Below, piece by piece: positions 3,001 to 54,954 of a stretch of DNA of 64,000 bases (its first letter is position 1; each line of letters opens with the position of its first letter). A model generated the notes under the pieces. It was not told the DNA's origin. It searched no databases and saw only the letters and a list, made by a program, of their open reading frames with translations. The position numbers and the translations under genes were made by a program. Where the stretch lies: the sequence record PV874203.1, one strand, 5' to 3'. The stretch is from a phage.

Positions 3001-4006
3001 AGCGGCTCAGAAGCGTGAGAATGATCTCATGGCAGTACAACGTCAACGTGACGACATTCATCGTCGCCTGATGCATACTTTGGAAGATAAAGGCATATCT
3101 AAAGAGGATGCTGAAGCATTTGCTGGTTCCTACATGGATAACCGTTATGCACTTCTTGATAAGCCTATGACTCCTACTGAACATCAGAATGCTCGTTCTC
3201 GTATCGAAGCTGATGTTGAGAAGTTTGCTAAGAAGTACGAATCAATGACTCCTATCGAGAAAGAGATTGTTAAGGTTACTGGAGATACTGAAGGTAAGCT
3301 TGATAACTTGGATGCGGATACTAGGAAGGCTATTGAGGAGGCTCAGAAGGTTGACTCTGATATTAAGAAATTGCAAGAGGAAGAGTTGGAGATGGAGAAG
3401 ATTCGTTCTGCTCTGCCTGATGATGAAAAATCTCAAGCAAATTCTGATATCTTGGAAAGTATCAAACAGCAGGAAGAAGTCTTTGCTGATAAAGTAGAGA
3501 AAGCTTTCTTGAGTGGGAAGAGCTTGGATGAGTTAGCTAGTGTGGCTGAAGTTTTAGACAGGGTTCATGGTGCAGATAAGGCTGGTAACAACCGTCGCTT
3601 TGTACGTGCATTGCAGACTGCTGCTGAAAACAAGAAGAAGTATGGTGATAATCCAGTAGCTTGGTTTAGTGCTGATGATTACTCTGCCATTGCTAAACTT
3701 GGCGCTTCTTCCGCAGGTGGTAACAAATCTAGAGCACTGGAGAAGATCTTTGGTTCTACAGCTGAACAGGCTAAGAGTAAGTTGCTTGGTAGGGATGATG
3801 TAGCGAAGATGAGACGTGTGATTGAAGAGAACCCTGATATTAAGATTCCTTCTTACAAGACAACGAATCGTACTGAGTACTTGCAGTTCTTGGAGAAGTT
3901 TAATGACGAAGGGAAGCCGAAGATTAAACGTGGCTCATTGTCAGAGAAGCTTGAACGCAGTAAGCGTCAATCGAGACTCCGTGTAAGAGTTCGACCTAAG
4001 GAGTGA
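2..4006 (+). CDS. Large virion-associated protein, 5'-partial (frame open from window start); Gly/Ala-rich N-terminal region then long charged helical region; putative internal virion/ejection protein or tape-measure-like protein
   Basis: Frame open from position 2 with no stop before 4006; first start codon in track at 215. N-terminus is GA-rich (GAKGGALVGAAEA, GAMGAAFGGAVGG), remainder is K/E/R/A-rich. Function inferred only from size, composition and position at the end of the late block. Confidence 0.6.
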   Translation, partial: ANPLAAAAIIAGRETGRAYADQTPEEGEDKSILDAALVGGANYAAQRILPGAVGTAESTLGRIGQNVATNAVAGAKGGALVGAAEAQNKHGDDTTFANVLEGAIEEGAMGAAFGGAVGGVHGLISRPDSAVFKNTPEYAKTDIAADDELIRSAKNIDELKEAYSKAETANAASALNLLDENGFRITDAVAVDSPAAQRILNTDQARAEKAASVQKEHSNIPGLNPLASPAKVRGKAFADNEHNQKQAVAMKDAMADYTKDNTKALTDVLDNLDRELVSLRASGDFTGSPIDIKNRTQADRDFIDAYKTFYNEANRFKARDGEDFNNFVEKATELQKMADNVSPEMKQAIGGLKKLKGMPEGFNPIQDAYTLNNTAKFMSNQDRGWTSLTDDGFRETSSPSLVMNTLGAAKYALNRFSSQRARSQRVKQQESNSEAIRSLARGDLEVARAKSTADEARAKMEEEPVVDDIKFKTQNDVETEPVREPSSSTVTEENLPSSAPQETPLTARDLVAQRRAIRQAEQRRAEEEAAAAQEAPVEQAPQAEPLPARNPLEERRAMEQQRAQEEATQAPEPTVEEPTVKAEPLPARAPKAPKEAVQDVKPASGVERLAAMSSAARQATKDRAERFARSLYSKAAKAKATAENFLAYKGDPKELMRRIRQEDNAINTERHEEMARNQLASQQGIATAKNNTVRTNFAEWVKERGLPEDIATKALRAEEKGLGGNVTNLDSLKRRAERLYQKQREAEFDRLYQEALEENKAFDKKDAPKLVDQKKELQSEIDTLIDSEPLRPAQKDAMRRLMNDYVDGKFKSSEKAGREEALEVGQMKDIWDGFINTYNREVNAFNKANKNSQYEAAAKHLQAREERLATLRNKAQARSDAKAAVENERKTLEAIAAQKSEIEKMMEGLPKPVREAQESRTLKQLAAHHDKNSPVPPEKFRSYIERIHNAESDYLDRQRRLTDAEEDARQAKWNKMYEQAEEMDRKFDIDKRVKRSEELKAAQKRENDLMAVQRQRDDIHRRLMHTLEDKGISKEDAEAFAGSYMDNRYALLDKPMTPTEHQNARSRIEADVEKFAKKYESMTPIEKEIVKVTGDTEGKLDNLDADTRKAIEEAQKVDSDIKKLQEEELEMEKIRSALPDDEKSQANSDILESIKQQEEVFADKVEKAFLSGKSLDELASVAEVLDRVHGADKAGNNRRFVRALQTAAENKKKYGDNPVAWFSADDYSAIAKLGASSAGGNKSRALEKIFGSTAEQAKSKLLGRDDVAKMRRVIEENPDIKIPSYKTTNRTEYLQFLEKFNDEGKPKIKRGSLSEKLERSKRQSRLRVRVRPKE

Positions 4007-4010
4007 TAAA

Positions 4011-4048
4011 AGAAAAGCCCTCAACCGAAAGGAAGAGGGCTTTATTAT
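4011..4048. terminator. Bidirectional rho-independent terminator at the convergence of plus and minus gene blocks
   Basis: Hairpin GCCCTC-12 nt loop-GAGGGC followed by TTTATTATTT on plus strand, and preceded by an A-rich run that gives a T-run on the minus strand. Confidence 0.6.
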
Positions 4049-4050
4049 TT

Positions 4051-4308
4051 CTAGATTAAATCGTAATACTGAATAATGTCAGAGAGTTTGAACTCTCGAA
4101 TCTCATCTTTCTCTACATCAATTGCTGTCATAATCCAACAAGGTTTGCCACCGTTATGAAAACGGGAGCTAGCAACGGAGGTTCGGAGTGGAATAACGGA
4201 CCGGTCAGCAACCTCGCCTCTCCAATTGCGATAGCGAAAGCGAAGCACTTGTTGCGTAGATTTTTGATCATCACTCATTTCCTTTTTTGAATTGTTTTCT
4301 TGCATCAT
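4051..4308 (-). CDS. Hypothetical protein
   Basis: 85-aa ORF in the minus-strand block, tightly packed against neighbours. Confidence 0.45.
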   Translation of the reverse strand: MMQENNSKKEMSDDQKSTQQVLRFRYRNWRGEVADRSVIPLRTSVASSRFHNGGKPCWIMTAIDVEKDEIREFKLSDIIQYYDLI

Positions 4309-4817
4309 TGGTATTCCCTAGCCATCAGATCTTCCTTAGCTTTAAGGTAGGCGTTATGTGCTTCTATTGGTGTGTTGAAACTACCTATATGTTTCCTTTT
4401 ACCTCTGAAGGTAATAGCGGCTACATAAGGATTACTCTTACTGGTCTTGTTGATAGTAACACCTTTCAATCCTGTTGAGAGGTTATCAACTCTAGGATTA
4501 CTCTTATTTAAATTCTGAAGAGATCCTTCTGCTATTCTAAGATTTTGAATAGTGTTGTTTGTCTTATTCTCATCGATATGATCCAGGCTATCTGGATATG
4601 TTCCATAAATGAGGAACCACGCCAGCCTATGAGCGAGCCAAGGCTTCCCATCAAATTGTATCCTCACATATCCATCATTACCTAGTGTCCCAGCCAAAGA
4701 ACCTTTTGAGGCTTTTCCTCCTCTTCTCACTTTCCAAAAGAAGTGACCTGTGTCTGCATTATAGTCTAACACTTCATGGAGATTGGCTAGTCTTTTTAAA
4801 CTGTTTTCGATCTTCAT
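4305..4817 (-). CDS. HNH homing endonuclease with AP2-like DNA-binding region
   Basis: Track ORF 4305..4928 trimmed to an internal ATG (MKIENS...) preceded by AAGGAA. Contains HRLAWFLIYG and DHID-N motifs typical of HNH_3 phage endonucleases. Confidence 0.7.
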   Translation of the reverse strand: MKIENSLKRLANLHEVLDYNADTGHFFWKVRRGGKASKGSLAGTLGNDGYVRIQFDGKPWLAHRLAWFLIYGTYPDSLDHIDENKTNNTIQNLRIAEGSLQNLNKSNPRVDNLSTGLKGVTINKTSKSNPYVAAITFRGKRKHIGSFNTPIEAHNAYLKAKEDLMAREYQ

Positions 4818-5181
4818 TTTCCTTCTTTGTTTTAATCTTATGACAAGGGTCTTTACACAGAACCTGAAAACCTTCTTTCTCACACAGAGCACGAGAGATG
4901 ATTTCATCCCAAGTTGCTTCATGGTCAAGAGGAACTATAGGTTCTATGTGGTCAATAGCCATATCCTTTACAGGGTGGTCAGAACCACACATGGCACACT
5001 TAAAGTGCATTGCCAGTCTGCCTGTCTTTGGATTAATCTTCTGCTCTGTCTTGGCGTCTGCTAGTGCATCGAACATGGGCTTCCACTTTCTAGTCAGAGA
5101 ACGAATCCCTGACTTGATAAAAGAGTTGTAACGAGCTTCAGTCCACATTCCAGAGCATCTAGTCTTCTCAGCCTTCGCCAT
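4774..5181 (-). CDS. HNH endonuclease family protein
   Basis: Motif CAMCG...DHIEPI...LCK-PCH matches the Cys/His HNH nuclease core. Confidence 0.6.
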   Translation of the reverse strand: MAKAEKTRCSGMWTEARYNSFIKSGIRSLTRKWKPMFDALADAKTEQKINPKTGRLAMHFKCAMCGSDHPVKDMAIDHIEPIVPLDHEATWDEIISRALCEKEGFQVLCKDPCHKIKTKKENEDRKQFKKTSQSP

Positions 5182-5359
5182 AACCTACACTCATATCATC
5201 TTCTTCCCATACACGTTTATCCACTCGGTGTGATACTTTTTCACGTTTTTCTTTAATATAGCGGTTGCCTAATTCGTGGCTATATTTAATACGCTGCTCT
5301 TTACGAGATTCACGGTTGGAGGAGTTTTCATCATATGAACGATAATCAAATTTACCCAT
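5168..5359 (-). CDS. Hypothetical small basic protein
   Basis: 63-aa ORF between two HNH genes. Confidence 0.3.
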   Translation of the reverse strand: MGKFDYRSYDENSSNRESRKEQRIKYSHELGNRYIKEKREKVSHRVDKRVWEEDDMSVGYGEG

Positions 5360-5382
5360 TATAATATCCTTATTACCAAGAT

Positions 5383-5892
5383 TTATTTGTGACGATGAAA
5401 GCCTAAGTGTAGGTCTTCTCTCTTTATTCTTAGGGCTTCTTCAGCCTCTTCTTTAGTTGCATAATACCCTAGATGGATAGATTTCCCAGACACTCCAATA
5501 ATAGCTCTCCACTTATTAGCTCTTTTATGGAAAGAGACTCCCTTGATTCCGGAAGTACAGTTTATAGAGATCTTTCTGTTCCACTGATTCTGACTTAAAG
5601 TGGCTTCTCTTAGATTACACCACTTGTTATTAGAAGGGTCCCCATCTATGTGATCTACACAATCGGGAATGTAACCTTCCATATAAAGGAATGCAAGTCT
5701 ATGAGATTGGTACAATATTCGATTTACCTTGATGCAGTGGTATTTATGTTTTCCATAAAAACATCCAGCCACATCTCCAACATTCTTCCTACCTTTCTTA
5801 ACTGTCCAAGTAAACTGACCAGTATTCGGGTCATACTTGAGAAGTCTTTTTAACTCTTCTCTATCCAAGATTACCATTCCTTGTTTAACCAT
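5383..5892 (-). CDS. HNH homing endonuclease (HNH_3 plus AP2-like domain)
   Basis: HRLAFLYMEGYIPDCVDHIDGDPSNNKWCNLR motif, then GVSF/KW-A AP2-like segment. Confidence 0.8.
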   Translation of the reverse strand: MVKQGMVILDREELKRLLKYDPNTGQFTWTVKKGRKNVGDVAGCFYGKHKYHCIKVNRILYQSHRLAFLYMEGYIPDCVDHIDGDPSNNKWCNLREATLSQNQWNRKISINCTSGIKGVSFHKRANKWRAIIGVSGKSIHLGYYATKEEAEEALRIKREDLHLGFHRHK

Positions 5893-6675
5893 GTCCAGTC
5901 GAACAGGTCTTCCGGAGTCTGACCAACAAAGAGCAGCCGAGCATTCTCAAGCATTTTCTCTTCATCTTCAGTATCGAACTTCTTATAATATTCCATTCGT
6001 ACTATATGATACATGGTCCACTTATCTGTAACACCAGCCAACAGTTTAGCTGCTGCTTTCTTCCCTACTCCTTGACGTCGAAGCTGGAGCTTACCACCCC
6101 ACATAACTTCTTTACGTTCTCCACATCCGGGGATATTATCTGTACCATCTCCAATCAACATCTGATAGAAGAAGTTTTGCCATGAAACTAAATCAGATAC
6201 GTAGTGAGGAGGAACCTCTTTTTGTCTTTCTCCACAAGCCCAACGGTAATGCCATCCGGGAGTTATTAACAAATCCTTGTCTCTTGTACAGATAATAGTG
6301 TTCTTATCCCTACGTTGCCTTTCAGCTAATGCATCATCAGCCTCTCTCCCAAATACATCAATGTATTCATACTTACTCTTAATGTAATCACCGACATTTT
6401 GCCAATGAAAAGGTCTTTCTCCGGGAGGTCTGTTTGCTTTGTAGTCTTGCTGCTTAGCAACATCAAAACGGAAATTACCACCTTCGCTGAAGTAGAATAC
6501 AACCTTACTACAACCCGAGCGAGCTATGATTGTATCAATCTTGTACTGAAGTCGTTCAATCATGAAATTGTAATCAACTGGAACACGTCCTGTGTCAAGG
6601 AAGGGATGCTCTTGAGTAAGAGCACCTACTTCATATCGAAGAACGTCAGCGTCCACTATAGCAACTTCAGGGAGC

Positions 6676-8212
<1,537 letters not shown>

Positions 8213-11758: not shown

Positions 11759-11953
11759 TCACTCTACCAATGCAGGTACTTCTATCCTTTTAACTGTGAA
11801 TGTTTTGTTTGGAAACTTTCGAACTAACTCTGCTGCTTTGGTTATTGCTAAGTTCTCTGTCTCAAAGATACACAGTTGACCATTTAATGCTACAAGAGTA
11901 GAGCCACCGCTGAAGACGGCCCAAGATTCATAATAACCACGAACACTCATCAC
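11759..11953 (-). CDS. Hypothetical protein
   Basis: 64-aa ORF. Confidence 0.4.
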   Translation of the reverse strand: MMSVRGYYESWAVFSGGSTLVALNGQLCIFETENLAITKAAELVRKFPNKTFTVKRIEVPALVE

Positions 11954-12315
11954 TCAACCTCAATATTATATAAAGATTTTAATGTATCTTTAACCCAAGA
12001 GATTCGTTTTTGGTTCTTATGATGTGCTCTGTTGTCCCTATCTCTGAAGTATTGATCACATCCAAAAGGATAAGTCTTGTCCAAGAATTTATCCTGAGTG
12101 AACATGTTTTTCATATCATCTATATCTAGATGTTTTGTGAAATAATAATACCTCTTATAACAACGGAAGTTGAAACATAATCCATGATCTTCGTTAAACC
12201 AAGGAGGGCACTCCTCTGTTTGAGTTATATGGTAGTATTGGAGGAGGAAGTCCTCCATCCCCCTCTCCTTGAATAAACACCTAAGTGTTCTGTAAACTAT
12301 ATTAGTTTCTTTCAT
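11950..12315 (-). CDS. Hypothetical Cys/His-rich protein
   Basis: Track ORF trimmed to its first ATG; several Cys/His residues. Confidence 0.45.
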   Translation of the reverse strand: MKETNIVYRTLRCLFKERGMEDFLLQYYHITQTEECPPWFNEDHGLCFNFRCYKRYYYFTKHLDIDDMKNMFTQDKFLDKTYPFGCDQYFRDRDNRAHHKNQKRISWVKDTLKSLYNIEVE

Positions 12316-12323
12316 CACCTACC

Positions 12324-12476
12324 TCAATGGGTATGCATCCAATTCAATCCAATCTGACAATCAGATGCCAGAGGACATTCCATGTTCAAATACTCACCAG
12401 CCTTCTTAACACAAAGCTCGGTGTGCTCTTTGAGTTTCTGTACATCGTTACGATTAGCTGAGAACTGACCCTCATC
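12324..12476 (-). CDS. DNA polymerase (family A, T7 gp5-like), exon 2: motif C (DE of HDE) and C-terminus
   Basis: Hand translation gives DEGQFSANRNDVQKL...MECPLASDCQIGLNWMHTH*, paralleling the T7 DNA polymerase C-terminus (HDE... PNWAICH) as I recall it. An in-frame stop sits immediately upstream. Confidence 0.7.
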   Translation of the reverse strand, partial: DEGQFSANRNDVQKLKEHTELCVKKAGEYLNMECPLASDCQIGLNWMHTH

Positions 12477-13083
12477 CATTTATGTTATTCCCAAATTACT
12501 TCGGGTATCGGACTATATCATAACAGCATAGCTAATTTGCTGTTGTTGGCGCTTCGAGGGTTTCCCTGTTAACCCCCTACTCCCGCAGGATAGTCTCTAC
12601 ACTTTCCACTTTCGAATCCATCTACAAGCGATTCCAAAGCTCACACCAAACCTTTCTGCAAGAGCAACACCAGTACATTCATTATTAAGCCAGAACTCTT
12701 TAGCAGCATCCTGTCTTTCTCTGTTTCTACCAGTATTTGATTCTATGGCATGTGCACTACCTTCTAAGATCTCTAGATGATCAGTGTTACAACATGCCCT
12801 ATTCTTGCATTTGTGGTTAACTTCGTAGCCGTCAGGAATGTTTCCAAACTTCTCTTCCATGACATACCTATGATACATGACCCATTTGCCATTTATCACT
12901 TTTCGAAAGTATCCATCTTTATTTAATTTGTGTGAGATAGGGATGATACATCCTGTGCTAGTTGTTTCTAGCACTAGATCTTTCTTAGCCATATCACCTC
13001 CTAATAGCTTAGCTCGGTATTGCCCTCAACTTAATGGTCGGGTTTCACCGAGTTCACCAACTTTTACATGCACAATGAAGTTT
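12477..13083 (-). mobile_element. Putative group I intron interrupting the DNA polymerase gene at motif C, carrying an HNH homing endonuclease ORF
   Basis: 607-nt insert between exon 1 ending ...VIDMH (codon CAU, so U precedes the 5' splice site) and exon 2 starting DE...; last insert nucleotide is G. Exon 1 frame runs into the insert for 9 codons then stops. Boundaries are plus or minus a few nt. Confidence 0.6.
12597..12992 (-). CDS. HNH homing endonuclease (insert-encoded)
   Basis: GYEVNHKCKNRACCNTDHLE motif (HNH_3); lies wholly inside the insert in the polymerase gene. Confidence 0.8.
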   Translation of the reverse strand: MAKKDLVLETTSTGCIIPISHKLNKDGYFRKVINGKWVMYHRYVMEEKFGNIPDGYEVNHKCKNRACCNTDHLEILEGSAHAIESNTGRNRERQDAAKEFWLNNECTGVALAERFGVSFGIACRWIRKWKV

Positions 13084-14775
13084 ATGCATATCAATTACCT
13101 TAGCACAACGAACCTTATCTCTCTCAATCCACTTGTTAAGGAACATCATAGCATATTTCATAACAACAGCACCAGCACATTGCAGGAGAGTGTTAAGTGC
13201 TTTATGAACCATAACCTTACCAGTGGCATCTCGTCTCATTGTAATCTTACGACCATCAACACCAATCAAGTACCCTTGAGCAGCTTTCTCTGTCATACGA
13301 TCAATGAGGATTGCAATACATGGGTTCTCTGCCAAGAAACGTGCTCGCATCACTGAACCTTCGTCAGCCCCACCACCTACAATTGAACCGAGCTTAGCAT
13401 CACCAGCACCATAGTTGAATGCGTAGATAAATGTCTTAGCGTTGTCACGAGTAGGAAGACCAGCAAGTTTCTGGTTGTGGGAGTGTATATCACCTTCAAG
13501 GAGAATATCACGATACATAATAGCAGAAGCTAAACCACGTTCTGCCAGAGCTTTCTTAGCTGGATTGTTTTCTTCTATTGCTTCAGCAAGCATATCCCTA
13601 CACTCTTTAATGAGGTAGTGTGCAAGCATACGCAACTCTAACCCAGAACCATCATACCCCAAGAATACTTCTTTACCAGCGGGTATGTAATATTTGTAAG
13701 CACCTACAGGTTTGTCTTTCTTCCCCGGCTTACCTTTCTCATAAATTACGTTAGTACCTTTTCGTATATAACAACCATCAGGAACAACGTTAGTAATAAC
13801 GAAAGGACGAGAGTGATCATCATCTGAGTTATAGTCAGATTCAAACAAACTGCGACACTCATGACCAAACAAACCACGGGAGGGAATATTAACCACGATA
13901 CGATGTTTGAATCGAAAAGTCGGCGTAGCGCAGCTGTTAGCTTCTGCCGAAAGTTTACCATCTTCGCGCTCCTTTGCTATAAGTCCACTAATAAGACCTA
14001 GCCTGTGAGCCGCTACAACGCGTCTCTTAAGCAAACTTCCGACACTCCCTAGCTCACCCCCTAACCCTTCTTCAAGAGTCTCCTCGAGGTTTGTAGGGGC
14101 TGTAGGCCACTTGTTTGAGGTAGCTAGTGCTATCTTAATCTCATCAAAAGTAATAGGTCTACGTCGGTTAGGATTTAAACCTAAACCAAACACATAAGCC
14201 TTCATGTAGTTCTTAGTTTTAAACCGAAAATGCTTCTCTAAGAACTTTCTAATATCAGCGTCAACCATCTCGGCTGTCTGCTTCTGTTTAGCATTACCTC
14301 GCATCCAAGCTGAATACCATGCTTGGTATGTTCCATACTTTCGCATATCTTTCTTGATTTCAAAAGTATTCCAAGGTTTCTTTGATACATTAAACTCTGG
14401 AGGAAGAAAACCCTCATCCATAAGGGCTTCTTTAACTCGGGCATCTTTCGATGGGTCAAAGGCTACGTACTCTACACAGGTGAATGCTCCACCAATGTCT
14501 TCTCTCTTAAGTCCAACCCTATCACAATAGGCTTGAGGCCACTTCTGTAAAGCTCCAGACTTCTTAAATGGCTTCATATAAGTAGAGCCATCTAATCTCA
14601 TCTTAGGTAAGAGAGGAATCAGTTCTTTGTCAATATTAACAATAATCTCTTTAAGGAGGTGAACATACCACCGAGCATTTCTTCGGTTGAAACTCACTCC
14701 GTGCTTCGCTTGCTTAGAGATTATATCAGCGACAGTCATCTCTGTCAAAAATGGGAGAGCGTCCGGGTTGCTCAC
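13084..14775 (-). CDS. DNA polymerase (family A, T7 gp5-like), exon 1: polymerase domain through motif B, no 3'-5' exonuclease domain
   Basis: Motif A GYDGSGLELRMLAHY, motif B RDNAKTFIYAFNYGAG, and ALNTLLQCAGA segment parallel T7 gp5. Track ORF ends at 13054 after reading 9 codons into the insert. Confidence 0.85.
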
Positions 14776-16346: not shown

Positions 16347-16355
16347 TGGATGCTA

Positions 16356-16721
16356 TTAAAACTCTGCTAAGTATTTAATATCAGAGGCATATACCTCATC
16401 AAAGGAAATAACTTCTCCATTGTAAAGAAGTTCTATCTTCAATATACCAGAGCATTTGGTGTCTTTAGAATCAACCCTGATAGAGAGTTTATCAACTATC
16501 TGAGCTTTAATCTCTTCTATTTCTGGCTCTTGAGTATACTCACTCCACCCTCCCGGTGGTACAAAATCATCGGGAACGTCAATGATAGTAGGTTCTCCAT
16601 CATTCATGCAGGTATCTTCATTGAACTCTTCACACTCAAAGCATGCTCGTTCGATATTTTTGTAGAAGTCGATGGTTGCTGAACCATCACCACAATCTCG
16701 GATAACTAAAGCGACTTGCAT
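16356..16721 (-). CDS. Hypothetical protein
   Basis: 121-aa acidic Cys-containing ORF. Confidence 0.45.
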   Translation of the reverse strand: MQVALVIRDCGDGSATIDFYKNIERACFECEEFNEDTCMNDGEPTIIDVPDDFVPPGGWSEYTQEPEIEEIKAQIVDKLSIRVDSKDTKCSGILKIELLYNGEVISFDEVYASDIKYLAEF

Positions 16722-17461
16722 TTATCTTGTTCCTTTTCCATAGCTTTAACAATGGCCTTACAGAAACCAGAACGAACAATGTCATCCGATTCTCCGTCTA
16801 CAATCTCAGCGAACTCATATAGATCATGTTCATCAATAAAGTTAGTAGCCCAAGTAAGACCACTCTCACGACCACGCATATCATGCTGGTTAGTATCACC
16901 CATGCAGAACAGCTGAGAGGTTTCTCCCAATCTAGTCATGATTGAGAAGGCTTCATCTTTAGTGGTGTTCTGGAACTCATCAACGATAACGATAGCATCA
17001 TTGAAAGAACGACCACGGAGATATTCCAGAGGTACAAATTCAATGTTACTGTTACCGAGCTGGCATTCATAGAATCCCTTACCGTATCGCTGAGTAATAA
17101 CATCAATGATAGGCATCAGATAAGGTTCAAACTTCTCGCGCATTCCTCCCGGAAGTAAGCCAAGAGAGTTACCCATGCCGACCGAAGGGCGACTCAGGAT
17201 GATCTTCTGAATCTTACCACTCTTCAGTGCATCAATAACCGTGGAAGTGATTACAAAGGTCTTACCACAGCCCGCAGGAGCGTCTGTGAACACAACTTGC
17301 TTAGTCTTGATAGCATTGAGCAGCTCAGACTGGAACTGGTTCTGAGGGACTACAGGCTTTGCTAAAACCACCTCTTCAAACTCTCGCTTACCCTTACGAG
17401 TGACAAGTGCTTCCCGACGAAGGTCTTTCCGTGATTCTTTCCGTGATTGACGACGACTCAT
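16706..17461 (-). CDS. phoH: PhoH-like ATPase
   Basis: Walker A DAPAGCGKTF plus characteristic PhoH segments (GNS-GLLPG, EF-PLEYLRGRS, IVDEFQN, MGDTNQHD). Confidence 0.8.
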   Translation of the reverse strand: MSRRQSRKESRKDLRREALVTRKGKREFEEVVLAKPVVPQNQFQSELLNAIKTKQVVFTDAPAGCGKTFVITSTVIDALKSGKIQKIILSRPSVGMGNSLGLLPGGMREKFEPYLMPIIDVITQRYGKGFYECQLGNSNIEFVPLEYLRGRSFNDAIVIVDEFQNTTKDEAFSIMTRLGETSQLFCMGDTNQHDMRGRESGLTWATNFIDEHDLYEFAEIVDGESDDIVRSGFCKAIVKAMEKEQDKCKSL

Positions 17462-18162: not shown

Positions 18163-18819
18163 TTACTTATTCCAAGTAGTTGATAAGGCTTTCCAAGAGA
18201 TAGGATAAAGTTTCTTCATCTCTTCGTCAATAGTTTGTGCAAACAAACGAACTTCATATTGAGCGTGTTCTGATAGGCGTTGACGACATACTTCTGACCA
18301 GCCGTATAAGGATCCAGTCCAGATCCACTCTGTCGTCATTCCCTGAGGTAGGACAAACCGAGCTTGCTCAGGAGCAATTAGGTCAATCAATTTTTCATAA
18401 TTGCTAACAGCTACTTCATACGCCTCATTAATCAATGTGAGAGCCTCTACACGGGCTTCATCTTGTAAGATGATACCAGAACCCTTATGAAGGTCATCAG
18501 GTCGGGAGAAGATCTCTTGTGGGATAAATACCTCAACACCATCATCCTTGTACCTGCGGCTTTTCTCATTCCAGCTAAACCCTGATTGATGCTTCCCAAG
18601 TTGACGAGCGATGGCAATAGGAGCTACACAGCGGAAGGTTACTTGTGGGTGCCTAAAAGGAGTCACATGTTTTTCACGAGCAAGAAAGTTGATGAGACGC
18701 TCATCACGCTCATTTAAATCACCTTCACGGGTTACACCAAAGGATACACGAGCTGCATTAACAACGGTTTTATCCGAGCCCATTGCTTCTACTAATGTTA
18801 CTTTTAACTGATCAGACAT
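18163..18819 (-). CDS. thyX: Putative flavin-dependent thymidylate synthase (ThyX-like)
   Basis: Size and a KH-x7-S-RRY segment resembling the ThyX RHR-x7-S signature; not a perfect match. Confidence 0.5.
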   Translation of the reverse strand: MSDQLKVTLVEAMGSDKTVVNAARVSFGVTREGDLNERDERLINFLAREKHVTPFRHPQVTFRCVAPIAIARQLGKHQSGFSWNEKSRRYKDDGVEVFIPQEIFSRPDDLHKGSGIILQDEARVEALTLINEAYEVAVSNYEKLIDLIAPEQARFVLPQGMTTEWIWTGSLYGWSEVCRQRLSEHAQYEVRLFAQTIDEEMKKLYPISWKALSTTWNK

Positions 18820-18831
18820 TGATTATCCTTG

Positions 18832-19107
18832 TTATTTATTATTCAGAGCTGTATCTAAAAATGCTTTCAGGTTTGCTTCAGTCTGCATACCAGAGAGGCT
18901 GTAATGTGCACCACTGTTACGGTCAGGTACAACAAAAGCAGGGATGCTTCGTACACCATATTTAACAGCTTGTTCACGACCATCACCTTCAAGGATGTTA
19001 ATCTCTTCCACTTCTACATCAAACTCCTTAACAACCTTCTCAAAGGTAGGAGCCATTGCTTTACATGGAGCACACTGATCACTATAAAACTTAATTACTT
19101 TAGACAT
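18832..19107 (-). CDS. Thioredoxin
   Basis: CAPC active site in a 91-aa protein with thioredoxin-like flanking sequence. Confidence 0.8.
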   Translation of the reverse strand: MSKVIKFYSDQCAPCKAMAPTFEKVVKEFDVEVEEINILEGDGREQAVKYGVRSIPAFVVPDRNSGAHYSLSGMQTEANLKAFLDTALNNK

Positions 19108-19352: not shown

Positions 19353-19916
19353 TTAGTAAGACACATCACCACTTGAGTGGGACATGTTGCTCTTGACGAA
19401 GTAGCAATACTTGCCGAGACCTTCATTGATTTCTTGAAGCATACTCTGATCAACTGGATAGGTGGCTAAATCACCATCAAACTCATCCATCTTCTCAATA
19501 ATACACATCAAGGTCATGCACATATCAGAGAGCATACCGTCCATATCTAGGTCAGCATTACCTTCTGAGAACCAAGCATGAGAAAGATAATTGGCTGCTG
19601 TAGCGTCCACTTTAACACAGTGGTAACGCATACGTTCAGCAATACGATCTCCTACTTGTCGTGCGTAATCTTCCAGCTCATCAAACATACCATGAACACC
19701 CTGAAATCCTGCACCAGAGACGTTCCAGTGGTAGTTTTTAGCTTTGATATGCAAGAGTTCCATGTTAGCTTGTAAGCAGCTCAGGATGTGTTCTAGGCTG
19801 TTTCCACTAATCATACCCTGCATAGTTTCAAGGCGAGAGATTGAAAGCTCAGATCGGTCTAACATGTTATATTCTGCACGACCGATTTCAGGTAAATCAA
19901 AGACATTCTTATGCAT
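19353..19916 (-). CDS. Dps/ferritin-like protein
   Basis: KAKNYHWNVSGAGFQGVHGMFDELEDYARQVGDRIAERM matches the Dps helix A/B ferroxidase-region pattern; length about 187 aa. Confidence 0.55.
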   Translation of the reverse strand: MHKNVFDLPEIGRAEYNMLDRSELSISRLETMQGMISGNSLEHILSCLQANMELLHIKAKNYHWNVSGAGFQGVHGMFDELEDYARQVGDRIAERMRYHCVKVDATAANYLSHAWFSEGNADLDMDGMLSDMCMTLMCIIEKMDEFDGDLATYPVDQSMLQEINEGLGKYCYFVKSNMSHSSGDVSY

Positions 19917-20403
19917 TATATTCCCTCCAAGTTTGATTAAGTAGAGCTTTTGACATCACTTGCTGAGAGACACCAAAACGTCTTGCAAGGGCAGAGCCTC
20001 CAAACTCTTTATCTCGAGGGATATAGACTCTCCTACAGTACTCTACATCTTCTAGAGTAAGTTTAGACTGTGGATTGTCTTCTCCAAACCTCTGTACCAT
20101 CAGACCTAATGATGATGCATGTTGAGAGTTTTCTCGGTGGGTACACCATTCAAGATTATCTTTATGATTGTTAAGTTTATTGCCATCCTTATGGTTGACA
20201 CATGGAAGATTATCAGGGTTCGGTATGTACTTACTAGCAACCAGCCTGTGGACATAGAAATTCTTTAATCCTTCAGGAAAGTAAATAGTAACTCTGTAAT
20301 AGGCACCATTAGTGTGGAGGGTTAAAAACCTTCCACTCTTTATAGTAAATACTCTACCATCTTCTGTTACATCAATCTTCCCTTCCAATTCTTTTGGAAT
20401 CAC
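19909..20403 (-). CDS. HNH homing endonuclease
   Basis: YVHRLVASKYI...VNHKDGNKLNNHKDNLEWCTHRENSQH (HNH_3). Confidence 0.8.
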   Translation of the reverse strand: MIPKELEGKIDVTEDGRVFTIKSGRFLTLHTNGAYYRVTIYFPEGLKNFYVHRLVASKYIPNPDNLPCVNHKDGNKLNNHKDNLEWCTHRENSQHASSLGLMVQRFGEDNPQSKLTLEDVEYCRRVYIPRDKEFGGSALARRFGVSQQVMSKALLNQTWREYNA

Positions 20404-35992: not shown

Positions 35993-36457
35993 TTACTCTA
36001 TCCTAACTGAAGGGCAGTATTTCTCTTTCTTGCTGCGATACATCACAACAATCCAGTTTGAATCACGACGCTCTTTCTTACGTCGTTTCTTTTCAGCACG
36101 AGTTTCATATGTGCTAGTTCTGTGGTCACGGTATATTCCACGAAGTTCATAAAATGCCCAACCACCACCAAACACTACACCAGCCAAAGCAGCCAAAGAC
36201 AAGGCACCAAGAGCAGGGGCAGTGAACCATGTCCACCAATTGAATGACAAAAAATTCTCATGCCCAAGTAAAGAGCCACCAATCATGGACAGTGCAGCGT
36301 ATACAACCCCTAACAGCAGCGTCAGTGCAATGAAGTGCATCACTGTACGCCAGAAGTATTCACAGAAGTTGGTCATGTTGTCCCAATGATAATTGGGTAG
36401 GCTTGACATGGCTTTGTTGAACTTGTGCAACCAGCCGTTCTTGTTAACCTTGATCAT
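35993..36457 (-). CDS. Hypothetical membrane protein (two predicted TM helices, basic C-terminus)
   Basis: Hydrophobic segments HFIALTLLLGVVYAALSMIGGSLLG and FTAPALGALSLAALAGVVFGGGWAF. Confidence 0.5.
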   Translation of the reverse strand: MIKVNKNGWLHKFNKAMSSLPNYHWDNMTNFCEYFWRTVMHFIALTLLLGVVYAALSMIGGSLLGHENFLSFNWWTWFTAPALGALSLAALAGVVFGGGWAFYELRGIYRDHRTSTYETRAEKKRRKKERRDSNWIVVMYRSKKEKYCPSVRIE

Positions 36458-39586: not shown

Positions 39587-39662
39587 TGGTGCACCCTACA
39601 GGACTCGAACCTGTAACCAACGACTTAGAAGGTCGCTGCTCTGTCCATTGAGCTAAGGGTGC
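39587..39662 (-). tRNA. tRNA-Arg (anticodon UCU), 76 nt with encoded CCA
   Basis: Hand-folded cloverleaf: acceptor GCACCCT/AGGGTGC, D-arm GCTC/GAGC, anticodon stem GCGAC/GTCGT with loop CTTCTAA, T-arm ACAGG/CCTGT with loop TTCGAGT, 3' ACCA. Confidence 0.8.
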
Positions 39663-39671
39663 TATATTTAT

Positions 39672-39980
39672 TTATAAGGAGAAAGACTTCTTACAATCCT
39701 TCTCTTCAAAAGTGTAGTAGCCTGTTGTATCAGGGAAGTAGGCATACTTTGTTTCTTTGCCATCAATAGCCATGACACGATTACCAGAAGTTGTTTCTAC
39801 AAACAGAAGCCCATCTCTTACCATACCATGAGATTCTTTGATACCAGTTAAGCTATGCTCTTTAAGAGTGCATTGCTGAACACTCTGATACTTAACTCCA
39901 ATCTCTGCACTATTAACAGAGATGATACCAATGGTTGTCATTAGTAGTAAGGTTGAGATGATAAAATGCTTTTGTTTCAC
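39672..39980 (-). CDS. Hypothetical secreted protein
   Basis: N-terminal signal-peptide-like segment (MKQKHFIISTLLLMTTIGIISVNSA). Confidence 0.45.
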   Translation of the reverse strand: MKQKHFIISTLLLMTTIGIISVNSAEIGVKYQSVQQCTLKEHSLTGIKESHGMVRDGLLFVETTSGNRVMAIDGKETKYAYFPDTTGYYTFEEKDCKKSFSL

Positions 39981-39998
39981 ATTAACCTCTGGATTTAT

Positions 39999-40208
39999 TT
40001 AACTGAAGATACGCAAGGCCACATCGTGATAGATATGACCGGGGACTTTGTGCTGTTCTATTTTCAAACAGCGTTTACAGACACGAGATACACGAGATTC
40101 TTTTCTCTCGACCGGAGTGTCTTTAGCGTGAGTAATATGTAAGTTTTCAGTGATCACCCACTCATGTTTACATCCAGAATCTTCGGGCTTTTTCTTACGA
40201 AAGAACAT
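39999..40208 (-). CDS. Hypothetical Cys-containing protein
   Basis: 69-aa ORF with CKHEW ... CKRC pattern. Confidence 0.4.
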   Translation of the reverse strand: MFFRKKKPEDSGCKHEWVITENLHITHAKDTPVERKESRVSRVCKRCLKIEQHKVPGHIYHDVALRIFS

Positions 40209-40217
40209 AACACCCCC

Positions 40218-40379
40218 TTAGATTACATCACGATGACTAACATCACCACACACCTTACACTGAATAACGTAACGTGTGCCCTTGTCATTATTCCCATCTG
40301 AATCTGTATAGACCAGAGGGCGAGTATTAATAATCTTCCAATCATGACAATGAAAGACACGCTTTAGCCACTTGAACAT
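40218..40379 (-). CDS. Hypothetical zinc-ribbon protein
   Basis: Track ORF trimmed to internal Met (MFKWLKRVFHCHDW...CKVCGD) to avoid overlap. Confidence 0.35.
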   Translation of the reverse strand: MFKWLKRVFHCHDWKIINTRPLVYTDSDGNNDKGTRYVIQCKVCGDVSHRDVI

Positions 40380-40386
40380 ATTAACC

Positions 40387-40638
40387 TCAAGCACAAGCAG
40401 GGAGAGTGATGATTTTATGCTTACCATCAAACTCTCCAAATAAACCTAAGAATGTAGGACTGTAAGTGCCAGTACAAACAAACTCATCAAACAGTGCGTT
40501 ATAGCTAGGCTTAATCTTCCAAGCCCATACATAACCCATCTTGTCAATTGCAATGTAACGAGTGTTCAGAGGAACAGTCATCATCACACCATCAACTTCA
40601 ATCACTTTAGTTATTGGTGCAGCTTGGAAGTTTTTCAT
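40387..40638 (-). CDS. Hypothetical protein
   Basis: 83-aa ORF. Confidence 0.4.
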   Translation of the reverse strand: MKNFQAAPITKVIEVDGVMMTVPLNTRYIAIDKMGYVWAWKIKPSYNALFDEFVCTGTYSPTFLGLFGEFDGKHKIITLPACA

Positions 40639-51319: not shown

Positions 51320-51881
51320 TTTAATCAAAGCGATGGATCTTAATGAGTATAATTCACAGCTATGTCGCTCTGGTTGTAGCTTACAACATTTAGAAACTAT
51401 GGGAAATGTTTCAGGGTTAGCTGTACAAGATTTATATAGTGGAAGTATTCTTAAACCAAATATTACGGAGAACAAAAACATGTTAGATTTGATTCATACT
51501 ACTCGCCCTGATTCTAAAACTAAAAAACAACCATCTACTCTGGAAGTAGTTGAATACGAATCTACTAAACATGATCACCTCCCTGACTATGCTCGTGCAA
51601 TGATTGAGATGATTGAAGAAGCTGAATATGAAATGCTCCATGATTACATTACCTCCAAAGATGAGTGGCATCGTGATGTTCGAATCGAAGAAGACGGTAC
51701 AGAAACAATTACGTGGATTCACAAGAGTGAGTTAGTAGACGACGCACTGCGAGACTACGAAAAATTTTTGGTCGACGGCTCTATTGTTTTAGAGGGAGAG
51801 AAGGGTGTAGAACTTCCGTGGGAGGGTGAGACGATTGCTTTAGGTAAGATGTTCAACCTGTCCGTTGGTGATTGTAAGTAA
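51312..51881 (+). CDS. Hypothetical protein
   Basis: 189-aa ORF. Confidence 0.5.
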   Translation: MNNLIKAMDLNEYNSQLCRSGCSLQHLETMGNVSGLAVQDLYSGSILKPNITENKNMLDLIHTTRPDSKTKKQPSTLEVVEYESTKHDHLPDYARAMIEMIEEAEYEMLHDYITSKDEWHRDVRIEEDGTETITWIHKSELVDDALRDYEKFLVDGSIVLEGEKGVELPWEGETIALGKMFNLSVGDCK

Positions 51882-51887
51882 TGTTTA

Positions 51888-51909
51888 CCTCCCTTGGGAG
51901 GCTTTTTGT
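51888..51909 (+). terminator. Putative rho-independent terminator / attenuator
   Basis: Hairpin CCTCCC-TT-GGGAGG followed by CTTTTTGTG. Confidence 0.4.
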
Positions 51910-51937
51910 GTTGTTGATAATGTAGAAGGAGTATAAA

Positions 51938-52411
51938 ATGTTTGGAGAAAACGGAGAACTCACGCCTGCACAGGTAGCTGAGATTACAGGAAGATTGCCC
52001 GGAGTAACGGAAGAACTTGAAAGCCGTGGTATGAACCCAAGCAATGGGAAGTTTCAAAAGGGAAATAAATTCGGACGACCCAGAGGTAGTAGAGGTAAAC
52101 TGACACAATTAATGTTGGACCGTGTTGCTGCAAGTCATTTGTCTCCTGATGAAGTGTTAATTCAAATTTACGAAGATCCTAATATTCCACCTGATCTTAG
52201 ATTCAAGGCTGCATCAAAAGTTGCAGATCTGGTATATCCTAAGGCGGCCTCTGTTGAAGTTAAGATTGAGGAAGAGAATGTAATCAACGAAGAATCATTG
52301 AATGCACAAATCAAGGACTTCTTGACTGGAGCACTTGGTATCGACGTTATGCCTCCAGAAGAAGACAACTCTGAGGACGCTGAAAAGGGGGAGGAAGCGG
52401 ACGAGAGTTAA
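51938..52411 (+). CDS. Putative terminase small subunit
   Basis: Immediately upstream of the large terminase; HTH-like LTPAQVAEITG, basic Gly-rich segment, acidic C-terminus. Assignment by position and composition. Confidence 0.4.
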   Translation: MFGENGELTPAQVAEITGRLPGVTEELESRGMNPSNGKFQKGNKFGRPRGSRGKLTQLMLDRVAASHLSPDEVLIQIYEDPNIPPDLRFKAASKVADLVYPKAASVEVKIEEENVINEESLNAQIKDFLTGALGIDVMPPEEDNSEDAEKGEEADES

Positions 52412-52529
52412 TTAAAGGAAGCTGTATGGATGCTGGATTCCTAAGTTAACCAGATATGCAGCGAATAAGAGAGGGGGAGGTTCTTTGACGAAGGGACTTT
52501 CCCTTTTCTATTTTTAAACTGGAGGAAGT

Positions 52530-52736
52530 ATGTCATTAGATAAACAAATTTATGAAGCTCTAACTGGTAACAATCTTAGTGTAGAGGAAAAGAAAGCACT
52601 ATTGAATATGTTGAAAGAGCGTGACCAATGGAGGAAGTATAATAGGATTTTGTCTTTCAAGGCGTATGACTTCCAAAAGAAATTTTATGCAGCAGGATTG
52701 AAGCATCGCTTTAGGTTCTTGTGTGCGGCTAACCGT
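52530..52736 (+). CDS. Terminase large subunit (T7 gp19-like), exon 1, ending inside the Walker A motif
   Basis: GGAGG RBS, ATG; translation ends ...YDFQKKFYAAGLKHRFRFLCAANR then an in-frame TAA. Confidence 0.65.
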
Positions 52737-53558
52737 TAACTGTTATTCACCAAGATAACCAACACGAATCTGTCGCAGTATACAAAAGAGATTATCACCT
52801 AAGGCTTAGCTATGGTGGAGCGGTTTAAAAAGTGTGCTAATTGCTGGAAGGCTGTTACGAAAGTTATGCTAATCAGCAGCGAAGCTTAATGTGGGAAACC
52901 TATTAAGAACGTTCAACGACCAGAGATTATTCTCGTAGGGTAAAGTTACCCGAAACGCACACCCCAGAGTGGGATGATATGGTCTATTCTTTTCGGAAAC
53001 GTAAAGCAGGAGAAATTAAAAATATGTTTTTATATCACATCCGTCGTCCGGGTATGTCTTTAGAAGAGGGCTACATCGGAATCACGACAAACACTACAAA
53101 ACGTTTTGCTCAGCATCACAGAGACACTCGAAATAACAACCGACATAATAGGAACTGGCATCTCTATAACGCTCTTCGTAAATATGATGATATAGAGTTC
53201 GTTATCATAGAAGAAGGGGAAGATGAAGTAATTCGACAGAGAGAGTTTGAATTACGCTCGAAACCTAATATGGGTTGGAATCAAGCAGTAGGAGGTTCTC
53301 ATAATGGTGGCAACACTTGGAAAGGCAAACAACGACCTGAACACTCAGAGCTGATGAAGAAGATAGGTTTCCAGAAAGGTAATACCACTGGATCACATCA
53401 TCCAATCATGGCTGAAGGTCAAATATTTGAGAATAAACGTTTAGCGTCAGAAGCTCTTGGAATAAACCCTAAGACAATCTATAATAGATGCAAGAGAGGT
53501 GTTGATGGTTATAAATTTCTCCGGGATGACACTGTTACGGGTGCATCTGAATAAAGAG
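52737..53558 (+). mobile_element. Putative group I intron in the terminase large subunit gene, carrying a GIY-YIG homing endonuclease ORF
   Basis: About 822-nt insert splitting the P-loop: exon 1 ...AANR (last nt U) and exon 2 VGKSYSEA... give AANRVGKS (AxxxxGKS); insert ends in G. An alternative junction (52731/53550) is also rule-compatible. P1-P9 structure not verified. Confidence 0.55.
52979..53554 (+). CDS. GIY-YIG homing endonuclease (insert-encoded)
   Basis: N-terminal YHIRRPGMSLEEGYIGITTNTTKRFAQH matches the GIY-YIG core; basic C-terminal DNA-binding region. Confidence 0.75.
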   Translation: MVYSFRKRKAGEIKNMFLYHIRRPGMSLEEGYIGITTNTTKRFAQHHRDTRNNNRHNRNWHLYNALRKYDDIEFVIIEEGEDEVIRQREFELRSKPNMGWNQAVGGSHNGGNTWKGKQRPEHSELMKKIGFQKGNTTGSHHPIMAEGQIFENKRLASEALGINPKTIYNRCKRGVDGYKFLRDDTVTGASE

Positions 53559-54893
53559 GTTGGTAAATCTTACAGCGAGGCATACGAGTTTGCTTGTCAT
53601 GTCACAGGTCGCTACCCAACTTGGTGGACAGGATATAAATTTAAAAGACCTATCTTAGCATGGGCAGTTGGTATTACAGGGGATTCCACAAGGAAAGTAT
53701 TGCAAAAGGAATTGTTTGGTACACCTATCGGAAAGGATACAAATTTATTAGGGACAGGTGTCATTCCTCGTGATGCTATCGTCATTGATACGATAGAACG
53801 AGATGGTAACAAACTTCAAATCGTACAAATCAAACATCAAAATGAGAGAGGAGAATTTGACGGTTTAAGTACATTAGAATTCCGTTCAACCCAACAGGGT
53901 GAACACACATTGATGGGTGCAACAGTTGACTACATTTGGTTAGACGAAGAAGATCCATATGAGTCTATGGCTATATTCGCACAGTGCGTCACACGTACAC
54001 TCACAACTAAAGGTCTAGTTACAATTACAGCTACACCAGAGAACGGTTTAACTGAACTGGTAGATAAATTTATGAAAGGTGAAGGGGATGAGAACACAGG
54101 TTCTCTATATTTCCAGAATGCTTCTTGGTGGGATGCTCATGCAGACCTAGGTGGACACATCACTGACCAAGATATAAAAGATATGACTGAGGGTATTCCA
54201 GCGTGGCAATTAGAGATGCGTTCAAAAGGTATGCCATTGTTAGGAAGTGGTTTGATATATGATGTATCGGATGACACAATTAAATGTGAACCATTCGAAA
54301 TTCCTGATACGTGGAAACGTGTCTGTGCAATTGATATTGGTATTGATCACCCAACTGCTGCTGTTTGGACAGCTTACGATGCAAACACGGATACTATCTA
54401 TGTTTACGACTCATATAAAGAAGGTGGCTTTACTCCAGTGTATCATGCTCCAGCTATTAATGGTCGTGGTCAGTGGATTCCTGTCATCCTACCGCATGAT
54501 GCGGACAATACTGAGAAAGGTAGTGGTTCATCTGTTGCTCAATTCTATAAGAATGCAGGAGTTAACGTACAGAGTGAGACCTTCTACAACAAAATTGGAA
54601 TGGATGGTAAAAAGAACTTCTTTGTAGAACCGGGAATCACAGATATCCGAGAAAGAATGATGAGTGGACGCTTTAAAGTCTTTAACACAGCCGCTAACGC
54701 TAAGCTATTCGAAGAGAAAGCTAGATATCACCGTAAGGTTGGTAAGATTATTAAAGAACATGATGACTTAATGGATGCAATGCGTTATTCAGCGTGCTCT
54801 GTTACACATCGTGGTCGCTCTAAGCATGATGTTAGCTACGGAAGCGCTTCTTTGTATGAGGCAAACGTAAGCAGATGGAATCAGAGCTACTAA
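53559..54893 (+). CDS. Terminase large subunit (T7 gp19-like), exon 2: rest of ATPase domain and nuclease domain
   Basis: Begins VGKSYSEAYEF (completing Walker A), Walker B VDYIWLDEED. Track ORF starts at a GTG at 53499 inside the insert. Confidence 0.7.
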   Translation, partial: VGKSYSEAYEFACHVTGRYPTWWTGYKFKRPILAWAVGITGDSTRKVLQKELFGTPIGKDTNLLGTGVIPRDAIVIDTIERDGNKLQIVQIKHQNERGEFDGLSTLEFRSTQQGEHTLMGATVDYIWLDEEDPYESMAIFAQCVTRTLTTKGLVTITATPENGLTELVDKFMKGEGDENTGSLYFQNASWWDAHADLGGHITDQDIKDMTEGIPAWQLEMRSKGMPLLGSGLIYDVSDDTIKCEPFEIPDTWKRVCAIDIGIDHPTAAVWTAYDANTDTIYVYDSYKEGGFTPVYHAPAINGRGQWIPVILPHDADNTEKGSGSSVAQFYKNAGVNVQSETFYNKIGMDGKKNFFVEPGITDIRERMMSGRFKVFNTAANAKLFEEKARYHRKVGKIIKEHDDLMDAMRYSACSVTHRGRSKHDVSYGSASLYEANVSRWNQSY

Positions 54894-54954
54894 AGTAAGG
54901 GGGAGGTTTGTCCTCCCTTCTTTTATTTAAGCTATCAACCGAGGGAGAGAATAG

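Follow-up and report, generated by a model that had tools for sequence, protein, structure and literature searches.

The 64,000-nt stretch of phage DNA in sequence record PV874203.1, referred to as the window, carries six nuclease genes of the HNH and GIY-YIG types. We consider it likely that two kinds of homing-endonuclease elements, five in all, have colonised this phage and that it contains, in addition, one resident HNH nuclease. Three of the five mobile nucleases probably lie between genes, and two inside introns of the genes for the DNA polymerase (polA) and the large terminase subunit (terL). Gene identities, insertion sites, polymorphism, intron boundaries and the horizontal movement of one cassette were observed directly, and are described below.

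The phage, its relatives and its nuclease genes

Megablast comparisons of positions 3500–7500 and 8001–33000 with 50,697 phage records identified the window as a phiEco32-like (Kuravirus) coliphage. Approximately 99–109 records were matched, nearly all of them from Escherichia/Shigella Kuravirus phages (phiEco32, SU10, ES17, MN05, NJ01 and others). The top matches showed 93–96 % identity, with a coverage of at most 92 % for the 25-kb query and at most 75 % for the 4-kb query, and therefore the phage of the window is not itself among the 50,697 records. Phage MN05 (NC_070987), with a single HNH gene in its RefSeq annotation, was used as an endonuclease-poor reference; presence and absence were counted among the ca. 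99 sequenced kuravirus records, plus metagenomic contigs where these are named. Relative to MN05, the window contains four precise insertions, of 483 bp, 483 bp, 486 bp and 822 bp, corresponding respectively to the HNH genes designated HEG1 and HEG3, to an HNH gene at 19909 and to an intron in terL.

The six nuclease open reading frames (ORFs) proposed in the initial annotation are real, and their matches to nuclease families are well beyond chance. HEG1 is contained on the minus strand in a mechanical ORF at 4305–4928, with a likely ATG start at 4817 (4305–4817, 170 amino acids, aa), and matches HNH_3 (PF13392; E=1.2e-9, 38 bits) and the HNH endonuclease family phrog_99 (7e-54). HEG3 (5383–5892, minus strand, 169 aa at most, with a probable TTG start at 5868) matches HNH_3 (3.4e-12, 46.2 bits), AP2 (4.3e-7) and phrog_99 (1.7e-68). 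Between them, the core HNH gene (4774–5181, minus strand, 135 aa) did not match any Pfam family and was assigned to phrog_3106, annotated as HNH endonuclease (8.6e-39). Also on the minus strand, the gene at 12597–12992 (131 aa) matches HNH_3 (7.6e-12, 45.1 bits) and phrog_6254 (3e-41), and that at 19909–20403 (164 aa) matches HNH_3 (7.1e-9, 35.6 bits) and phrog_59 (6.5e-45); the gathering cut-off for PF13392 is 24.8 bits. The sixth gene, at 52979–53554 on the plus strand (191 aa, with a probable start at M16, position 53024), matches GIY-YIG (PF01541; E=1.1e-5, 26.1 bits against a gathering cut-off of 22.6) and the homing endonuclease family phrog_314 (6.3e-13). No further nuclease genes were found among the other ORFs specific to the window with respect to MN05 (16356–16721, 35993–36457, 39672–39980, 11950–12318, and others), which gave PHROGs matches to unknown-function, membrane or dNMP-kinase (deoxynucleoside monophosphate kinase) families.

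Alignment with the related genomes separates these genes clearly: among the ca. 99 kuravirus records, HEG1 occurs in none, HEG3 in one (PAS59), the gene at 19909 in three, the polA intron in 11 and the terL intron in none, while the core HNH gene is found in all. The mobility originally suggested for the whole set is thus supported for five of the six nuclease genes, which are polymorphic in presence at fixed sites among the relatives and include a cassette that moved between diverged backbones, but not for the core HNH gene, which is not polymorphic. The ORFs flanking the genes at 4305, 5383 and 19909 are full length and there is no RF00028 match at these sites, indicating that the three genes are free-standing; those at 12597 and 52979, which had been listed along with that at 19909, are both situated within group I introns.

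The description of 4305–5892 as three consecutive free-standing HNH genes has likewise to be amended. The three ORFs exist, but they are not strictly back to back: the first and the second overlap by 44 nt, and a conserved 63-aa ORF of unknown function (5168–5359, minus strand; phrog_10643, 2e-39; present in MN05, ES17, phiEco32 and PAS59) separates the second from the third. The denomination as homing genes fits HEG1 and HEG3, but not the middle ORF, which is a core gene present in all of the ca. 99 relatives and in more distant phages.

Free-standing HNH genes and the insertion hotspot

HEG3 is a free-standing gene with HNH_3 and AP2 domains, inserted at the 3′ end of a 5′-3′ exonuclease gene (5871–6695, minus strand) as a 483-bp cassette (ca. 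5387–5869). Its product aligns to I-HmuI (PDB 1U3E, E=1.9e-4), with a D-H dyad followed by an Asn at +21. These residues correspond to D74-H75...N96 of I-HmuI, where the His acts as general base and the Asn binds metal. In endonuclease-free genomes the site reads TGG TTA GAT AAA TCT TGG TAA TAAGGATATTATA ATG, comprising the end of the exonuclease (LDKSW and stop codon) and the start of the 63-aa ORF. In the genomes carrying an endonuclease here (the window, PAS59 and metagenomic contig L015), the exonuclease ends instead in LNKEW and a stop codon, written TTA AAC AAG GAA TGG TAA in the window. The original ATCTTGGTAATAAGG persists in the window and in PAS59 as a remnant after the stop codon of the endonuclease gene. 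The remnant in PAS59 (AACTTGGGAATAAGG) matches a different endonuclease-free allele, of the type found in contig L013, and therefore the same cassette is situated at the same nucleotide in different backbones.

PAS59 is the only phage record sharing HEG3 with the window, and comparison of both in 100-nt bins showed 90–98 % identity across 5311–5910, dropping to 61–85 % in the exonuclease, the core HNH gene and beyond. The synonymous divergence (dS; Nei-Gojobori) was 0.19 for HEG3, versus 1.68 for the exonuclease and 1.87 for the core HNH gene. This low value is not explicable by a stronger constraint on the protein, and indicates that divergence of the backbones had long preceded the exchange of the cassette. 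These comparisons of sequences indicate that the HEG3 cassette has moved horizontally between diverged backbones, and the locus, with a cassette of 90–98 % identity between flanks of ca. 75 %, illustrates cleanly how endonuclease cassettes pass in nature from one phage backbone to another.

HEG1 is also a free-standing HNH_3 gene with an AP2-like C-terminus, situated between the core HNH gene and an 85-aa ORF immediately downstream (4051–4308, minus strand, with a weak WYL-like match), and its cassette (ca. 4310–4792) is a 483-bp insertion with respect to MN05. No protein of at least 60 % aa identity to the HEG1 product was found in the phage records, the best match listed having ca. 44 %, whereas a large protein database contained homologues of 95 % and 90 % identity. 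The latter (P0030) occupies exactly the same junction in two kuravirus-like metagenomic contigs (L013 and L014), both lacking HEG3. A third contig, L015, contains a homologue of 58 % identity at this site and shares the triple arrangement of the window, in the order exonuclease, HNH_3/AP2 gene, 51-aa ORF, core HNH gene and HNH_3 gene.

Where the HEG1 site is free of an endonuclease, the overlap between the core HNH gene and the 85-aa ORF is 35 nt long. The HEG1 cassette of the window, L013 and L014 opens with a diverged copy of this overlap, which keeps the tail of the HNH protein (ENDARKQFKKGNE changed to ENEDRKQFKKTSQSP, each before the stop codon) and supplies the start codon of HEG1, and the original copy is retained downstream of HEG1 as the start of the 85-aa ORF. 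Accordingly, the diverged start of HEG1 (ca. 4793–4818) matches 26 bp around the start of the 85-aa ORF. The ratio of nonsynonymous to synonymous divergence (dN/dS) was 0.11–0.14 for HEG1 and HEG3, which denotes purifying selection and is consistent with functional proteins. An origin of this pair by recent tandem duplication was considered and rejected, as the paralogues share only 36 % aa identity.

The third free-standing gene, at 19909, lies between two overlapping conserved genes as a clean 486-bp insertion with respect to MN05. In the upstream gene, the last ca. 25 codons show heavy recoding, and there is an overlap of a few bases between the endonuclease ORF and each of its neighbours. 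All three free-standing genes are thus placed exactly where two conserved genes meet. Recoding of the 3′ codons of the upstream gene is thus a feature of the endonuclease-carrying alleles at all three free-standing sites, and in the two mobile genes of the 4305–5892 trio the original codons are kept as a remnant after the endonuclease stop codon. It is likely that the recoded ends either destroy the enzyme's own target or represent co-converted donor sequence. In a mixed infection, the enzyme would nick or cut the endonuclease-free allele of a related phage near the gene junction, and recombinational repair would then provide the cut genome with a copy of the nuclease gene and of part of the DNA beside it, a process of intronless homing; the carrier's own site would be protected by the recoded last codons of the upstream gene brought in by the cassette. 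The cleavage specificity, the target-site immunity and, for the introns treated below, the self-splicing supposed here are all predictions from nucleotide and protein sequences.

The core HNH gene behaves differently. It is present in 99/99 records and is syntenic in an 88-kb relative, where the order is exonuclease, (insert), small ORF, HNH gene, small ORF and a convergent large gene; in a distant phage, its homologue directly follows the gene for a DnaB helicase. The segment 4793–5386, containing the core HNH gene and the 63-aa ORF, is the only part of the region with DNA matches in all 99 kuravirus records, with 97 % identity to alleles of the ES17/DE5 type and ca. 86 % to those of the phiEco32/SU10/MN05 type. 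Its dN/dS (0.03–0.30) is similar to that of the neighbouring exonuclease. We retrieved 40 homologues of the core HNH protein (31–95 % identity), most of them on contigs of phage-genome size (ca. 40–96 kb) and several scoring with PF01844. In an alignment of 28 homologues, residues C62, C65, H78, C109 and H114 were invariant, and D77, P81, W91 and Q106-V107-L108 nearly so, defining the motif CxxC...DH...(N/G)xQVLC...CH, a zinc-finger His-Me motif with the classical HNH layout. An AlphaFold model built on this alignment had a mean predicted local distance difference test score of 93. The best PDB matches of this model in Foldseek were the Gme HNH nicking endonuclease (4H9D; probability 0.92, E=0.28), the CBASS protein Cap5 and a Cas9, with weak E-values (0.28 and above), and a sequence search of the PDB gave only a spurious match. 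From this conservation, the gene appears to code for a nuclease that belongs to the replication/recombination gene block and is inherited vertically, as opposed to a polymorphic homing element.

A role of the core HNH protein as a packaging-associated HNH nuclease or a small terminase was also rejected: the gene is ca. 27 kb away from terL, closes the replication/recombination operon beside the exonuclease, and is beside a DnaB helicase gene in the distant relative. Both position and motifs argue against the label "terminase small subunit" that it bears in some public kuravirus records, which looks wrong.

Several different insertions occur across kuraviruses at sites of the block around the core HNH gene, which is therefore an insertion hotspot. 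In addition to HEG1 and HEG3, gene phi32_31 of phiEco32 (HNH) sits between the core HNH gene and the 63-aa ORF, and PAS59 WMX18932 sits downstream of the large convergent gene. Other types of genes were also seen in the area: a Dam-type methyltransferase gene occupies the HEG3 junction in place of an HNH gene in a metagenomic contig (L019:3313–3840), and phage DE5 has an N6-adenine methyltransferase gene in the same exonuclease/core HNH block. The HEG3 junction thus seems to accept insertions of various types.

Group I introns in polA and terL

The 615-aa DNA polymerase of MN05 is uninterrupted and ends in ...VIDMHDEGQFSVNRN...NTH. In the window, the corresponding ORF (13054–14775) reads ...VIDMH and then a stop codon, and the sequence resumes at 12476 as DEGQFSANRN...HTH, up to the final stop. 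The interruption is a 607-nt group I intron in this family A DNA polymerase gene (12477–13083, minus strand), with the terminal U of exon 1 at 13084 and the terminal G of the intron at 12477; it holds the HNH ORF at 12597 and separates His from Asp-Glu in polymerase motif C (H|DE). In-silico excision yields an uninterrupted polymerase. Rfam model RF00028 matches the 3′ half of the intron (27.2 bits, E=1e-4), including the P7 elements GACUA/AUAUAGUC.

The polA intron is found in phage records including PE006 (97.7 % identity), FH3, PAS59 and ECBP2, but not in phiEco32, SU10, SGF2 and most others. It also aligns along its full length, including the ORF, with the gene 5 intron of the T7-like phage 13a (66 % identity over 639 nt), in whose record gp5 is annotated as a joined coding sequence (CDS) with the intron at the same position (...VH|DE...). 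The P9 hairpins of both introns differ by compensatory changes (CCCGA...TTTGGG vs. CTCCT...AGGAG). Judged by its location, the HNH gene at 12597 is thus intron-encoded and not free-standing.

Gene terL is interrupted in the window by a second, different group I intron (52737–53558, plus strand, 822 nt). A 69-aa ORF upstream (52530–52739) ends in ...FLCAANR and a stop codon, and the terminase ORF downstream (Terminase_6N/6C) contains ...VGKSYSEAYE, whereas TerL from MN05 reads ...FLCAANRVGKSYSEAYE without interruption. Removal in silico of 52737–53558, leaving a U at the exon end and with a G at the intron end, restores the MN05 junction and the full length of the protein. The insertion falls in the Walker A codons (CAANR|VGKSY), and positions 52734–53006 match the full RF00028 model with 74.6 bits, above the gathering threshold of 50. 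The GIY-YIG ORF begins within P9 and ends 4 nt short of the 3′ splice site, so that, from the predicted intron limits, this gene is also intron-encoded and not free-standing.

No kuravirus record contained the terL intron, only the two exon flanks of the query being matched (54 % coverage), and a search of the 50,697 phage records identified no close DNA relative, only matches of ca. 60 nt to the core. For the GIY-YIG protein, phage records gave only three weak matches from Vibrio phages (32–43 %), and a large protein database gave 28 homologues of metagenomic origin (51–97 % identity). Six of the contigs were examined: they are kuravirus-like, with an SU10-type portal, and carry the element at an identical CAANR|(V/I)GKS(Y/F) site, with RF00028 scores of 70–75 bits in the four contigs scanned with Rfam. 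Scanning IMG/VR for exact matches to 28 nt of the intron gave none. The alignment of six introns showed compensatory changes in 11 of the 66 predicted pairs, and among 14 homologues of the GIY-YIG protein, residues G31-Y32-I33-G34, R42, H46, E89 and N101 were invariant and Y19 nearly so.

In two of the contigs (L007:3979–4241 and L008:4503–5207) terL has a second interruption further inside the gene, with a second RF00028 group I intron (60–78 bits) and an ORF of 146–174 aa; contig L009 has a similar second split, with a 179-aa ORF (4460–4999) and no second Rfam match. This second interruption is absent from the window. The flanks of the terL intron differ in their identity to MN05, which is 99.2 % downstream (53559–54982) and 93.8 % upstream (51324–52736); a boundary of recombination or co-conversion situated at the intron could account for the asymmetry.

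For both introns, RNA splicing would restore the host gene, polA or terL, and the encoded nuclease would spread the intron to intron-free alleles. Annotations of this phage and of genomes like it should treat the two genes as interrupted and spliced.

Alternative readings, mosaicism and comparison with known systems

Loss of the HNH catalytic residues, named in the initial annotation as the observation that would undo its proposal, was not seen in the alignments: the motifs are intact, the only departure in the position of the Asn being that of HEG1. The protein at 19909 has N-H and Asn at +21, and that at 12597 has N-H, His at +21 and the extra cysteines typical of its subgroup. Nevertheless, some results weigh against considering all five elements as active and mobile. 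HEG1 retains the D-H pair, with its Asn at +22 instead of +21 from the catalytic His and beyond the stretch aligned by Pfam, and its activity is less certain because this residue is one position out of register and outside that alignment. Additionally, dS between HEG1 of the window and that of L013 is 0.35, versus 0.12–0.31 in the flanks, without any hint that this gene was transferred recently. The recoded flanks could have come from the donor by co-conversion and not be an immunity device. Lastly, the RF00028 score of the polA intron is below gathering (27.2 vs. 50 bits), as expected because the ORF splits the intron core; its membership rests on the full-length homology with the 13a intron, the identical site and the U/G boundaries.

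These points bear on three alternatives to a set of five mobile elements plus one resident nuclease. The three ORFs in 4305–5892 might be equivalent free-standing homing genes, with the middle one having become fixed in the genus. Its intact His-Me motif and its position between two mobile HNH genes would agree with this, as would the existence of other kuraviruses with further HNH genes beside the core one (such as phi32_31). We find this improbable, since the middle gene is universal among the 99 records and keeps its syntenic position in the distant 88-kb relatives, belongs to a different HNH family from that of the mobile genes, without BLASTP similarity to them, and evolves under constraints like those on the exonuclease, whereas a fixed homing gene without another function would be expected to decay. 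It is still harder to accept HEG1 and HEG3 as genes that do not propagate themselves, domesticated as DNA-binding regulators or as phage-exclusion weapons, a proposal for which there is very little room. Their AP2-type DNA-binding domain, the purifying selection acting on them and the lack of a recent-transfer signal in HEG1 could be accommodated by it; however, the two genes are missing from most close relatives and are hence dispensable, their catalytic D-H...N residues are kept, and the HEG3 cassette moved between diverged backbones. Moreover, the exclusion of markers from a co-infecting phage is the same mechanism as intronless homing.

The introns offer the other alternative, that the HNH gene at 12597 and the GIY-YIG gene at 52979 are free-standing and that polA and terL are fractured into separately translated pieces without any splicing. 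There is an ATG directly before polA exon 2, several public records of relatives list the parts of this gene as separate CDSs ("DNA polymerase" and "DNA polymerase-like protein"), and the Rfam score of the polA element is under the threshold. Against this, the terL element matches the whole RF00028 model and displays covariation; both elements have the canonical exon-end U and intron-end G, and their in-silico excision yields exactly the uninterrupted proteins; the homology of the polA element with the 13a gene 5 intron extends over its whole length; and a TerL piece of 69 aa that breaks off within Walker A would be unlikely to function as a subunit of its own. Fracture without splicing is thus quite unlikely, and we favour two group I introns with intron-encoded nucleases.

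The probable mosaicism with respect to related phages that the initial annotation anticipated is borne out by a blastn map of the window against MN05, in which all window-specific segments are listed and segment identities range from 72 % to 99 %. The thymidylate synthase gene (18193–18834) has 72 % identity, with neighbours at 96–97 %, and the region of MN05 coding for an anti-restriction nuclease (39915–40486 in that genome) has no counterpart in the window; this looks like an allele or cassette replacement. The dNMP-kinase region (6691–7307; ORF 6676–7311, phrog_139) has no nucleotide match to the nucleotide kinase and gp027 region of MN05, and is a replaced module right beside the endonuclease hotspot. 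A 382-bp insertion with respect to MN05 (16348–16729) contains a 121-aa ORF whose halves match two PHROGs of unknown function (13236 and 6906), and that may be a fusion of two small genes. Finally, a tRNA-Arg(TCT) gene (39587–39662, minus strand) is conserved in MN05 and has variable small ORFs on either side, the segment 39672–39980 being absent from MN05.

A literature search revealed no account devoted to introns or homing endonucleases of phiEco32 or Kuravirus. All the elements belong to known kinds, and there is no new kind of element among them; what is new are the particular insertion sites, the terL intron lineage absent from sequenced isolates, and a clear case of cassette exchange. 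The window adds an Escherichia coli podophage with two different group I introns, and cassettes carrying recoded ends of their target genes. The chances seem to us evenly balanced that a broader proposal is correct, in which the terL intron and its GIY-YIG gene would represent an undescribed mobile group I intron lineage targeting Walker A codons in phiEco32-like coliphages, circulating in uncultured relatives (some with a second terL intron) and absent from every sequenced isolate, and in which the block of exonuclease, 63-aa ORF and core HNH gene would be a multi-site landing pad, where HNH-AP2 genes have settled at four or more distinct junctions and each has brought along a recoded gene end by which its own target is destroyed. 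If this is true, the phage would offer a tractable model in E. coli for work on marker exclusion and on homing, both of introns and intronless, beyond the T-even phages.

Free-standing Seg and Mob genes of phage T4 spread by intronless homing. The free-standing genes of the window resemble them and the I-HmuI-type endonucleases in lying between conserved genes, in being polymorphic, and in having differences in the flanks linked to the presence of the endonuclease. With the phage homing endonucleases of the I-HmuI type (HNH_3, PF13392), including HNH-AP2 fusions, HEG3 and the gene at 19909 also share the D/N-H...N spacing, and HEG1 and HEG3 the AP2-like C-terminal domain. In contrast, the sequences of the free-standing genes are far diverged from those of the characterised enzymes of this type, and their predicted targets are new, namely the 3′ ends of three kuravirus genes, those for the exonuclease, the core HNH protein and a gp061-like product.

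The core HNH protein is closest to the small phage and bacterial HNH nicking endonucleases of the Gme HNH (4H9D) or PF01844 type, with the same CxxC...DH...CxxxCH layout and a predicted beta-beta-alpha-metal fold, and some of its homologues score with PF01844. It differs from these in lacking a Pfam match, in the substitution of the central Asn by Gly-Phe, and in possessing an extra N-terminal helical domain of ca. 55 aa, and its gene is not beside terminase genes.

The introns of phages PhiI and W31, of subgroup IA2, are situated at site 881 of Pol I and have an HNH ORF in P6a (PMC3428280). The polA intron of the window shares with these group IA2 introns and their HNH genes (I-TslI type), found in gene 5 of the T7-like phages PhiI, W31 and 13a, the insertion between His881 and Asp882 (E. 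coli Pol I numbering) of motif C (PMC3428280), but its host is here a phiEco32-like podophage with a different family A polymerase, and it is restricted to 11 records of the kuravirus type. Group I introns are known in terL genes of phages of the Bastillevirinae (PMC11878797), where, as in the window, an intron of the self-splicing type with a homing endonuclease ORF interrupts this core ATPase gene; the terL intron described here differs from them in residing in an E. coli podophage, in its insertion in the Walker A codons and in coding for a GIY-YIG enzyme.

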